NCBI GenBank assembly: GCA_000934665.2
Contig: JYFJ02004459.1
Coordinates: forward strand, 1 to 32,489
Source: Catajapyx aquilonaris
Lineage: Eukaryota
Direction: 5' to 3'
Length of the DNA stretch: 32,489 nt
In this document: piece after piece, positions 15,190 to 21,394 of the stretch
Numbering within the stretch: position 1 is the first letter of the stretch
Layout of the letters: each line of letters starts with the position of its first letter
Notes under the pieces: generated by a model
Databases searched by the model: none
What the model saw: only the letters and a program-made list of their open reading frames with translations
Told to the model about the DNA's origin: nothing
Position numbers and translations under genes: made by a program

Positions 15190-15415
15190 CTATTCTAAGA
15201 CTACGTTCGAGAGAGTCCCTGCGACGTCCTTGCCAATGTTGGCCGAGATGTTTTGTAGGGCCAACTTGGCCTGCTCAGCCACATGTGGATGATCCGAGCT
15301 CCGTAAAGTGACCAGGTGGGGTACTGCTCCTCCTGTCACCACTGCCTTGGCGTGATCAGATCTCCCCGCCGCAATTTTGGCCAGTGCCCCTGCTGCCTCG
15401 AACTGTAGCCCAGGA
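15190..15415 (-). CDS. Importin-alpha-like exon (ARM2-ARM3), not in ORF track
   Basis: Direct translation PGLQFEAAGALAKIAAG...EQAKLALQNISANIGKDVAGTLSNVVLE*. Confidence 0.8.
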
Positions 15416-18400: not shown

Positions 18401-21394
18401 CTCAACAGTCCCTGTGTTATCATCACATAATCTATCACCGTATTTGGCTGGGACGAACAAAATGTACTGTACATTCCCCCTTCCTGTCTGACTGTGAGTA
18501 CGATATCCCGTTCAACATAAACATAGAGTTTGCATCTAAAAATTGAATCAGCTTCTTTCCCTTTGTATTCATTTCCTTATCTTTTGAACATCTCCGATTT
18601 TGAAGTGGCAAACCTTCTTCAATATCATAACAAGCCGATTGGCACTCTTCGCCCACCCGAGCATTGAAGTCACCCATTAACATTATTTCATAATTTTGCT
18701 CTTGCCAGTTCATTACCACCGTTTCCAGTCCGCATAACTCAACTTCCATGTTTGCCGATGGTGGCAAATATACTAATCCTACTAGTAGTTGGGGAAGGTT
18801 GGGAACCACTAATGCAACAAAAATGTACATCTGGCTTGAATAACACAACTTCGGTTTCCACTGTTTCTTTACCATTAACGACATGCCGCCCTTAGGGCGC
18901 CCCATTCTTGCAGTTTTTGTTGCTTTAACTTGGAAATAACACCAATCACCCTTCTCTATTGACTCACAACACTTCATGTCCCATGTCTCCGTTAATCCTA
19001 TAACTTCCAGATTCGATGTAGCCTCACAACTCACACTTTTTGCTTCGTTTATGCTCATCCCCGCCACATTCCACGCTGCTGCTCCAAATACCATATTGGT
19101 CCGATGCAACAGATCTTCTTGAGAGATGACTAGTCTTTTATCATACTGATTCTCACACTACACTACTTGCGGATTATTCACTTCCTCCACTTCTGGTAGA
19201 GGCTTCTTTTGAGCCTGGACACTAACACTTACATCCGCAATTTCATCCCGTTTCACCACACCCCTTGCCCAGCAGATACCACATTCATAAGACCAGTCCA
19301 ACCCTCGCATGATCCTCTTTTCCACCTGTTAATCTTCATCAATTCTTGTATCTGGAGCCACTCCTCCTTTTGATTTCTGCGGCTGTTGACCTTGTGGTGA
19401 TTGCGAGGCTGGTAGCTTTGATGAGGATCCAGAACCTCCCCTGGTTGATGCACCGTACTGCACACCTTCATCCTGGTGTCGTCGTTCCCGAGGCTGGCCT
19501 TGGGGCCCATCTATCACACCATCCTTCAATTGATCCAACGTGTAAAAACACCCATTAATTCTTGCCCGGTCCCGACGCATTACTGCCATCTTGCCCTCTT
19601 CCTTAGCTCTCTTCACATAAGGCCAGAGTTGACGCCTTATTTCCCTCGTCTGTACCGAGAAGTCTTCTGACAGCGACAGTTCCGAATTCTTCAACCTTCC
19701 TGCGTTGGCCAGTATCGCCTCTCTATCCTTAAAAAGCATGCAATGAAGTATAATGGGGCTTAGGTGTCCCTGCTGCAGCCTTCCGAGTCGGTGACATCTC
19801 TCCACTGATAAGTTATAGTCACTAGCAATGATGCCAAAATGACGAAAAACCTTCAGTGCTATATTCTCGGTTTTGGCCCATGATTCTTGGCCATCCGGCC
19901 CCACCCCAAATAGGATCACGTTCTTTCGGCGACCCCTGTCTTCCATCTCCGTCACTTTTCGCTCCAACACTGCCATTTGACCCTTTACCACTTTCAGTTC
20001 TTCCTCCGCCGCACCCAGCCGGGTCCGGACCACCACCAGTTGTTCCTGGATAGCCTCAGTCACCACTTTGGAGATCTCGCTCTTCATTCTCAGCACCATC
20101 CTCTCTTCTACACGTTGCAGTAACACTTCTATCTCCTCCACTGAGGCCCCCATTTTTCCTTCGAATTTTCAACCCCTTGGGGTGGATTCACGAAAGGTCG
20201 TGAGTCAAATTTTCGTCGTAACCATGGTTACAATAATTAACTAACTATGGTTACGACCGGTTACGACGAATATTTGACTTACGACCTTTCGTGAATCCAC
20301 CCCCTTATCTCTTACTCCGGAGCTCCGCCAAACTGCGTGCTTGCGCAGCCGTGTCTGAATGGGAATTGTAGCTCAGAACTGAAAACAATTGAAGGGTTTG
20401 ATGGAAAGACAGGATAAGTGCACTTACTTTTGTTACTTGCGAGAAAACAAAGAAAAACTGAATTCCAGGAAAATTTTTAAAATGTTTCTCTTCATAATTT
20501 TTTGTTGAGTAGGATGATAGCAAAGTCAACATGCACCAGAATATGAAGTTTGTATGATGCATATTACACATTATACAGTGGAGTATAATGTGGACAAGTC
20601 TTGTTTTTGCACCGAATGAGAACGAGACATGTCCAAATAAATTATTTTTGTGTGTATGTTATGAGCATGGAAAAAAAATAAATCTCAATTTCATAGGCAA
20701 ACGTAGTGTTACAAACTCATCACCTAATTCATCATCACTCTGCTCAGCTACACTGCAGGGCTTTATCAATTTCAAGATGGCGCCGAAATTTTGATTTTAA
20801 TATAACTCAAAGTTCGCTCCTTTTGGGATATTTTGAATGGGCCTCCAAATGAAGCGTGAAATGTGTGCTTCGTGTTTCCGAAAAGTCTAGGTGACGACTT
20901 TTGGAATTTCACCCGCTAATATAGAGGGCAAAAACGCAGCCGGTTTGCGCTCTGGACAGTAGCTACGCTGGTCACTTGGGAGGCCTACGTATTATTTTCC
21001 CCAGTGGACTACACGACAGGTCTTATTTTCGTAGTACGCCAAACGATGCAGTATGGCCACAGGATGGCAGAACCACCCTACCCATAACTAATTTCCGGTC
21101 AAAAGTGGACTTGACCGGTTTTTCCACCAAACCCTTCAATTACAAATTGACGGTTCGAACTTGGACATTTATACACATTAATACGTACTTGTCAAATCGG
21201 GGCAGGAGGCTCACCAACAGGGGCACAATAGCCTCACGCTGAAGCATGGCGTCAATGCGAACGTCCATGGGTGTAATAGGGTTAGCTTCACTGACTGTGA
21301 GTACCATCCTAACATCCCTGATGCTCTCCAGTAACTGGATGTTACAATGGATTAATTCCATCTCCCATCCTGCAAGGGAACTCGAACTGGACAT
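15190..21394 (-). CDS. Truncated, divergent importin-alpha (karyopherin alpha) derivative, 143 aa, ARM1-3; join(21394-21189, 15415-15190); may be a pseudogene
   Basis: GAC AA|gtacgt ... tttcag|T CCT GGG joins IVPLLVSLLPRFD-N-PGLQFEAAGALAKIAAGRSDHAKAVVTGGAVPHLVTLRSSDHPHVAEQAKLALQNISAN, matching importin-alpha LQFEAAWALTNIASG..GAVP..EQAVWALGNIAGD; no internal stop or frameshift. Confidence 0.75.
16248..16601 (+). mobile_element. tRNA-derived SINE (family A) inserted in the LINE RT
   Basis: A-box tggtgctgcgg, B-box gttcgatccc, A-rich tail, TSD acaatatcat (16238-16247 / 16602-16611); removal restores FADDIVILASN. Confidence 0.9.
17192..17552 (+). mobile_element. tRNA-derived SINE (family B) inserted in LINE ORF2
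   Basis: A-box tggccgagatgg, B-box gttcaaatcc, (AAAT)n tail, perfect 15-bp TSD tactaagatctcaat (17177-17191 / 17553-17567); removal restores WIEILVTPIHK. Confidence 0.92.
19329..20153 (-). CDS. LINE ORF1 protein (coiled coil + L1-ORF1-type RRM/CTD)
   Basis: Heptad region followed by EDRGRRKNVILFGV, ERCHRLG, PIIL..DREAIL and SEDFS.QTREIRRQL; intact 274 aa. Confidence 0.85.
   Translation of the reverse strand: MGASVEEIEVLLQRVEERMVLRMKSEISKVVTEAIQEQLVVVRTRLGAAEEELKVVKGQMAVLERKVTEMEDRGRRKNVILFGVGPDGQESWAKTENIALKVFRHFGIIASDYNLSVERCHRLGRLQQGHLSPIILHCMLFKDREAILANAGRLKNSELSLSEDFSVQTREIRRQLWPYVKRAKEEGKMAVMRRDRARINGCFYTLDQLKDGVIDGPQGQPRERRHQDEGVQYGASTRGGSGSSSKLPASQSPQGQQPQKSKGGVAPDTRIDED
20179..20303. 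mobile_element. Harbinger-like MITE (125 bp) in the LINE 5' UTR
   Basis: ~45-bp TIR GGGGTGGATTCACGAAAGGTCGT(g/a)AGTCAAAT(t/a)TTCGTCGTAACC; 3-bp flanking duplication CTT. Confidence 0.85.

Follow-up and report, generated by a model that had tools for sequence, protein, structure and literature searches.

Can a LINE that lands on an intron–exon boundary still be spliced out, if the duplication made on its arrival has copied the splice acceptor? The question is raised by a degenerate importin-alpha2 gene of Catajapyx aquilonaris, which lies on the minus strand of a contig analysed here over 32,489 nucleotides (the window). An earlier note on this DNA had described a single LINE across 15400..20384, with two competing 3' splice sites, of which the distal would rescue the host reading frame and the proximal would give a same-strand LINE transcript. 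We consider it probable that this was a chance boundary insertion that disabled, or hardly affects, a dispensable host gene, which is now a pseudogene or near-neutral.

The insertion site

Two 22-mers frame the insert:

20363..20384, minus strand: proximal copy of the target site duplication (TSD), a TTTCAG acceptor plus 16 exon nucleotides, reading N-S-E-L-Q-F, with two derived changes
15400..15421, minus strand: distal TSD copy, a TTTCAG acceptor plus 16 exon nucleotides, reading N-P-G-L-Q-F, with one derived change

They agree at 19 of 22 positions (20384-20363 and 15421-15400), just as the earlier note had it, and are the best match to be had, both among pairs drawn from two 600-nt end regions and in the window as a whole; such a match is expected by chance at 2.5e-9 per site and 8e-4 across all pairs tested. 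The proximal copy ends exactly where the 5' ends of four sister LINE copies begin and the distal copy directly follows the tail, which places a direct repeat at both ends, as in TSD-flanked non-LTR insertions. The single-copy empty site proposed as a check is seen in paralogues, as distinct from an orthologue or allele: seven paralogous exons that lack the insert each have the 22-mer region once, and an intact importin-alpha2-type paralogue on another contig has an intron of 62 nt at the same phase-2 position. A protein search with exon A for an orthologous empty site (targets of 58-188 aa) returned four candidates, none significant; the neighbouring conserved gene, used as a control, matched only relatives at 51-53%, close relatives being seemingly absent from the database.

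Among the seven paralogues, the position of mismatch 1 is C in 7/7, that of mismatch 2 is A in 4/7 and that of mismatch 3 is G in 5/7, which assigns two derived changes, P to S and a silent one, to the proximal copy and one, E to G, to the distal copy. Because the paralogues polarise the three mismatches, the pre-insertion reading NPELQF that had been proposed is supported. Both spliced translations also read as previously described, the proximal giving ..RFDNSELQFPFRHGCASTQFGGAPE*, with N-S-E-L-Q-F and then a stop in the LINE 5' UTR, and the distal ..RFDNPGLQFEAA.., with N-P-G-L-Q-F-E-A-A.

It is extremely improbable that the 22-mer pair is a product of chance or of assembly. The three mismatches do exceed the LINE's own decay (P 0.06-0.15 at 2-3% divergence) and the assembly is fragmented, but the chance figure over all pairs is small, both copies lie exactly at element ends defined by the sisters, and the junction microhomology would be too short to mislead an assembler.

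As part of the reading that we favour, and with the confidence given to that reading as a whole, the hit on an acceptor was probably chance and no habit of the LINE family. An AG lies within 7 nt after the tail in 6/17 tailed sister ends, which is about the base-composition expectation (counted by eye, the exon context of the sister sites being left aside), and acceptor targeting by the RTEX-like family was rejected on this count.

A composite insert

The insert contains an ORF1, an ORF2 with APE endonuclease and reverse transcriptase (RT), and a simple-repeat tail, as is characteristic of non-LTR elements. It does not run as one element from 5' end to tail, and here the earlier description has to be corrected: the last ~225 nt, with the (GTT)4 tail that had been assigned to the LINE, belong to another family. 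The insert is best described as a chimera, an RTEX-like element fused to the 3' end of another LINE that is RTE-like and present in many copies, with further elements nested inside the insert:

20154..20362, minus strand: 5' UTR of the RTEX-like LINE, its start shared with four sister copies; the stop that ends proximal read-through lies here, as does a weak donor, GA/GTAAGA, after 20316
19329..20153, minus strand: ORF1, an open frame of LINE-1 type (coiled coil/RRM/CTD), with 80-81% identity to sisters
15646..19157, minus strand: ORF2 (APE endonuclease and RT), broken; Pfam PF14529 and PF00078
15435..15645, minus strand: 3' end of the RTE-like LINE, closed by a (GTT)4 tail and lacking AATAAA; a branch-point-like TGAT lies 35 nt ahead of the distal AG
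15422..15434, minus strand: (ATT)n run, its unit that of RTEX-like sister tails
20179..20303, strandless: palindromic MITE of 125 bp with perfect 22-bp inverted ends, inside the 5' UTR; absent from sisters
17192..17552, plus strand: SINE-like element, antisense to the host; TSD 15/15; strong cryptic acceptor at 17507
16248..16598, plus strand: SINE-like element, antisense to the host; TSD 12/13; 96-97% like a copy near 25660-25820

The 5' part (20362-15646) is 5'-complete and 3'-truncated, with sisters about 78% identical; judged by its motifs, it is putatively RTEX-like. Its ORF1, rightly called intact in the earlier note, is open for 274 aa counted from the ATG and resembles LINE-1 ORF1p (PDB 2ykp, E 0.005). 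A substantial ORF1 of this LINE-1 type agrees with the RTEX clade and contrasts with RTE, as set out in PMC3905857. ORF2 has suffered two frameshifts, one stop, two antisense SINE-like inserts and a 3' truncation. Five sisters extend ~650 nt beyond 15646, through the zinc-binding end of ORF2 to AATAAA-(ATT)n, and AATAAA is found at 18/19 of the family's 3' ends; in the window's copy this last ~650 nt, with the zinc-binding end, AATAAA and tail, is missing. In a further sister copy (L126, 2120-2372), ORF1 runs straight into the 3' part of ORF2 as the result of an internal deletion.

The RTE-like family yielded 1383 candidates; 40 were scored, and the 29 examined have their own upstream sequence in common and end mostly in TGT/TGA repeats. 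Among the 40 scored of the 1383 RTE-end candidates, only the window itself matches the upstream element for longer than 3 nt. Longer copies carry a C-terminal LRWFGHVER..GRP..TW motif, putatively that of RTE, which has no Pfam match and by which the 3' fragment is provisionally called RTE-like. The window's tail, (GTT)4 then (ATT)5, combines one unit from each LINE family. At the fusion junction there are a few G of microhomology, and the junction 18-mer occurs once in the assembly, which leaves a chimeric master element unsupported. A short 3' fragment of the RTE-like family also lies at 7815-7900, in an intron of a neighbouring gene that, judging by its motifs, is presumably acyl-CoA synthetase-like.

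As to how the chimera arose, we tentatively put first an origin in two steps, in which an RTE-like copy inserted into the (ATT)n tail with the loss of ~650 nt, and which the composite tail and the TSD lengths fit. Template switching during insertion is judged only slightly less likely; the single TSD fits it, and there is precedent in several LINE clades (PMC4476161). That the RTE-like piece came first is unlikely. TSDs of 14, 15 and 17 bp at 3/19 RTEX-like ends and of 9-12 bp at 5/29 RTE-like copies (the remaining sister rows having no TSD or an implausible one) are few in number, and lean towards the RTEX-like element as the source of the 22-bp duplication.

The dating of the insert is inconsistent. 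One stop in ~1070 LINE codons suggests a divergence of at most 3% (P 0.04 at 3%, 0.003 at 5.8%), the RTE-like piece has 5.8-6.1% private differences, the TSD has 3/44 differences, and the TSDs and terminal inverted repeats of the nested elements are near perfect. The MITE and the two SINEs came in after the LINE, one of them bringing a stronger, out-of-frame acceptor. Elsewhere in the window, two SINE-like elements abut at 25650-26100, with a tRNA-like head at 25908-25998 (ARAGORN); a foldback-like element at 22070-23030 has 193-nt inverted arms, 99% complementary, flanking 575 nt of AT-rich minisatellite; and an array of 39-nt repeats at 25212-25390 (plus strand) has YGYEQPKYEEKQS-like units in a short, stop-ended frame.

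The host gene

The following parts of the host were recognised around the insert:

21189..21444, minus strand: exon A, coding for the N-terminal ARM region of a diverged importin-alpha2, with its ATG at 21394, an inferred acceptor and the phase-2 donor AA/GTACGT
20379..21188, minus strand: original intron, 810 nt
15190..15415, minus strand: exon B, ARM2-ARM3 fused in frame to a piece of ARM7 (internal deletion); stop TAG at 15192-15190; Pfam PF00514, E 1e-7
14278..15142, minus strand: Sm D1-derived segment forming the host 3' end, with the end of the last intron, the last exon from 15087, and a 3' UTR with ATTAAA at 14908

Exon A matches the intact paralogue at 39% over 79 aa (tblastn, E 5e-6), and the intron position is as in L002. 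The Sm D1-derived segment matches G000:C2458 about 6328-7887 (L167), a locus with an LSM domain, at 83%; the siblings L113 and L114 have the importin–Sm D1 junction region too, over part of the segment, which suggests that a chimeric duplicate founded a subfamily. The copied last exon of Sm D1 codes for an RG-repeat tail, now behind the host stop, and its 3' UTR and flank were copied as well. Just upstream of the host gene, at 21750-22060, is a repeat common to several other contigs, which may be a promoter region acquired from elsewhere.

The degenerate importin-alpha2 duplicates number at least seven, the host among them, and L110, L111, L113 and L114 contain stops or frameshifts. These DNA-level, intron-bearing duplicates lie on G000 contigs C5549, C1938, C7811, C566, C382 and C2402 as well as in the window, and range from near intact (L003, L112) to dead. 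In a functional importin-alpha, an IBB domain is combined with some ten ARM repeats whose pocket residues are WxxxN. The frame found in the host copy encodes no IBB domain, gives one Pfam ARM match and lacks ARM4-6, and three conserved pocket Trp are replaced within 15190-15415 (minus strand) by G, L and G; the first of these changes is common to L110, L111 and L113 and so older than the host copy.

Exon B shows past constraint, and the host was probably constrained for much of its history. Its private changes number 11 silent to 5 replacement, compared with 9:3 in the intact gene and 51:73 in the four dead siblings (codons with no clear majority being skipped), which departs from neutrality at a binomial P of 0.0005-0.004 and from the dead siblings at a Fisher P of 0.059. 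Pairwise dN/dS is 0.26 for exon B versus 0.29-0.42 for the dead siblings, too close for that measure to separate the host from dead copies. Splicing to the distal site would leave an open frame of 143 codons, with the deletion in frame and the GT-AG ends intact. This openness has no power as evidence, as a frame of the host's size, evolving neutrally, would still be uninterrupted in 56-80% of cases at 2-6% divergence, the insert's likely age.

Was the host already dead when the element arrived, so that the duplicated acceptor never mattered? Four siblings are pseudogenes, ARM4-6 are internally deleted and the intron, 62 nt in the intact paralogue, had already grown to 810 nt. Against this stand the 11:5 ratio and a frame still open after a dS of 0.68 from the intact gene, for which the chance is 9% at 25% neutral divergence, and we judge an earlier death improbable.

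Splice sites and possible transcripts

Acceptors were scored with eight crude models built from 19-25 real acceptors of this genome, by which 451 AGs were ranked. Depending on the model, the distal AG takes ranks 3-15 and outscores 28-64% of real acceptors, at or near their median; the proximal AG ranks 11-30 and lies above 16-37%, and the distal scores above it in 7/8 models. An earlier model of 11 sites from two paralogues had ranked the distal AG 1 of 451, which became 3-15 once 19-25 sites were used. Both acceptors have 11 pyrimidines in 16, and the idea that the tail serves as a surrogate pyrimidine tract is plausible. Acceptor choice is, however, no two-way contest of the kind supposed, since in most models the AGs at 17507 (in an antisense SINE), 18447, 16917 and 20435 reach equal or higher scores.

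On the sense strand of the 4.9-kb insert, AATAAA does not occur (3.7 expected, P 0.03) and ATTAAA occurs once, at 17760. The fusion removed the terminal AATAAA of the RTEX-like family, which would make read-through to the distal AG possible, and the acceptor copied in the TSD could in principle allow the insert to be spliced out. When the proximal AG is joined to the donor at 21189, the frame closes after 90 codons, with ~155 nt still to go to the ORF1 ATG. The suggested proximal transcript would contain an open ORF1 but would be no productive LINE mRNA, as its frame ends before ORF1 and ORF2 is dead. What the suggested rescue would save is only a 143-aa remnant with no IBB, ARM4-6 or the three Trp.

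Rescue in the full sense would mean that splicing from the donor at 21189 passes over the weak proximal AG to the distal one, the 5-kb insert acting as an intron extension and a mini-importin still being made, with the RTE-like piece helping by having removed a poly(A) signal and added a branch-point-like motif and a U-rich tract. We think this unlikely. In its favour, the distal AG is near the median of real acceptors and the proximal in their lowest sixth to third, AATAAA is absent here and present at nearly all sister 3' ends, the open frame goes with the private-change ratio of exon B, and the merle allele is a precedent (PMC7349775). On the other side, frame openness is uninformative at this divergence, the intact proximal AG lies 5 kb closer, several cryptic AGs have equal scores, and the acceptor score, from 11-25 training sites, is crude.

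A stepwise taming, in which a second LINE replaced the 3' end of the first, deleting AATAAA and adding the branch point and U-rich tract, and in which read-through and splicing to the duplicated AG then kept a pocket-less mini-importin, seems to us distinctly improbable, if slightly less so than the earlier death of the host. If true, one transposon would be a natural suppressor of another's insertion allele.

Both acceptors might also be used in series, the proximal AG opening a 63-nt exon whose donor, GA/GTAAGA after 20316, would join to the distal AG, so that the frame is kept, 21 residues are gained and a new intron is created. Joining the three exons gives an open frame of 164 aa, the read-through stop is lost because the donor lies across it, and the sisters read GAGTTAAG there and not GAGTAAG. 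We regard serial use as very unlikely: with a generic matrix the donor scores 0.6, lower than any of the ten training donors (1.7-5.7), the use of a stronger donor (2.4) 33 nt downstream would retain the stop, and the donor difference need not postdate the insertion, as the sisters are only ~78% identical.

How the insertion may have come about

The chance boundary insertion that we favour would have begun with a non-LTR retrotransposon that primed reverse transcription on the T-run of the splice acceptor, in the manner of established target-primed reverse transcription; pairing of its T-rich tail with the T-run at the nick may account for this one acceptor hit. A staggered second cut 16 nt inside the exon would then have produced a 22-bp TSD that includes the AG. 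The insert would have become chimeric through a later RTE-like insertion into the (ATT)n tail with the ~650-nt deletion, or through a template switch. Most transcripts would now be spliced at the intact acceptor that comes first, or at a cryptic site, and meet an early stop, and distal splicing, if any, would be leakage that yields the 143-aa remnant.

Several lines of evidence point this way: the TSD at both ends, the absence of an acceptor habit, the unique junction, the at least seven degenerate paralogues, the losses of the host and its dN/dS like that of dead siblings, the replacement change in the distal TSD copy after duplication, and the later MITE and SINEs. Counted against it are the open 143-codon frame, the 11:5 changes, the higher score of the distal AG in most models and the lack of a sense AATAAA.

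Comparison with known systems

The closest parallel is canine merle, in which, according to PMC7349775, a SINE-Cf lies at the PMEL intron 10/exon 11 boundary with a 15-bp TSD containing the acceptor, its poly(T) acts as pyrimidine tract, and original and cryptic acceptors compete. Shared are the retroelement at an intron–exon boundary, the acceptor inside the TSD, the T-rich tail before the downstream copy and the rival acceptors, and the structure described here would work like a merle-type insertion. Merle is an antisense SINE of ~250 bp in a working gene, with splicing and phenotype shown, whereas the present insert, a LINE chimera of 5 kb, lies on the sense strand of a degenerate gene and would use its own T-rich simple-repeat tail as tract. 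In the literature searched, which was largely without subscription papers or supplements, no exact precedent for a LINE was found, and nothing closer than merle.

Introners, as described in PMC11282704 and PMC12130899, can likewise be removed at the RNA level through a 3' AG supplied by the TSD, and about 5% of those classified are non-LTR elements. As described there, they are families that make new introns at many sites, bringing or co-opting a donor; here a single insertion lengthens an existing intron, the junction is unique and the sister ends have no acceptor habit, so the insert does not show the family behaviour of an introner.

Chimeras reported in PMC4476161 join a 3'-truncated upstream partner to a 5'-truncated LINE 3' end inside one TSD, in L1, L2 and the RTE group, with a two-step origin as the named alternative. 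Truncated partners within one TSD are found here too, but the partners there are mostly snRNAs, whereas here two autonomous LINE families are joined and the upstream partner is 4.7 kb long.

The host has its own parallel in Drosophila, where importin-alpha2 has been repeatedly duplicated with IBB loss and high turnover, mostly as retrocopies with a full ARM array; in 29 other insects PMC8645118 found no such duplicates. Repeated duplication and IBB loss are common to both; the present copies differ as DNA duplicates with introns in a non-Drosophila insect, the host copy having fewer than three ARM repeats and a 3' end from Sm D1. Further literature for comparison includes PMC11203168, PMC5753468 and PMC5432752.

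If only the sequence facts hold, this locus is a single case of a known phenomenon, an acceptor-copying retroelement TSD together with a LINE–LINE chimera in a spare gene. If distal splicing is true, it would offer a testable case of a second insertion suppressing a first through removal of a poly(A) signal, and the logic of merle and the introners would reach a 5-kb sense-strand LINE with its own simple-repeat tail as pyrimidine tract.
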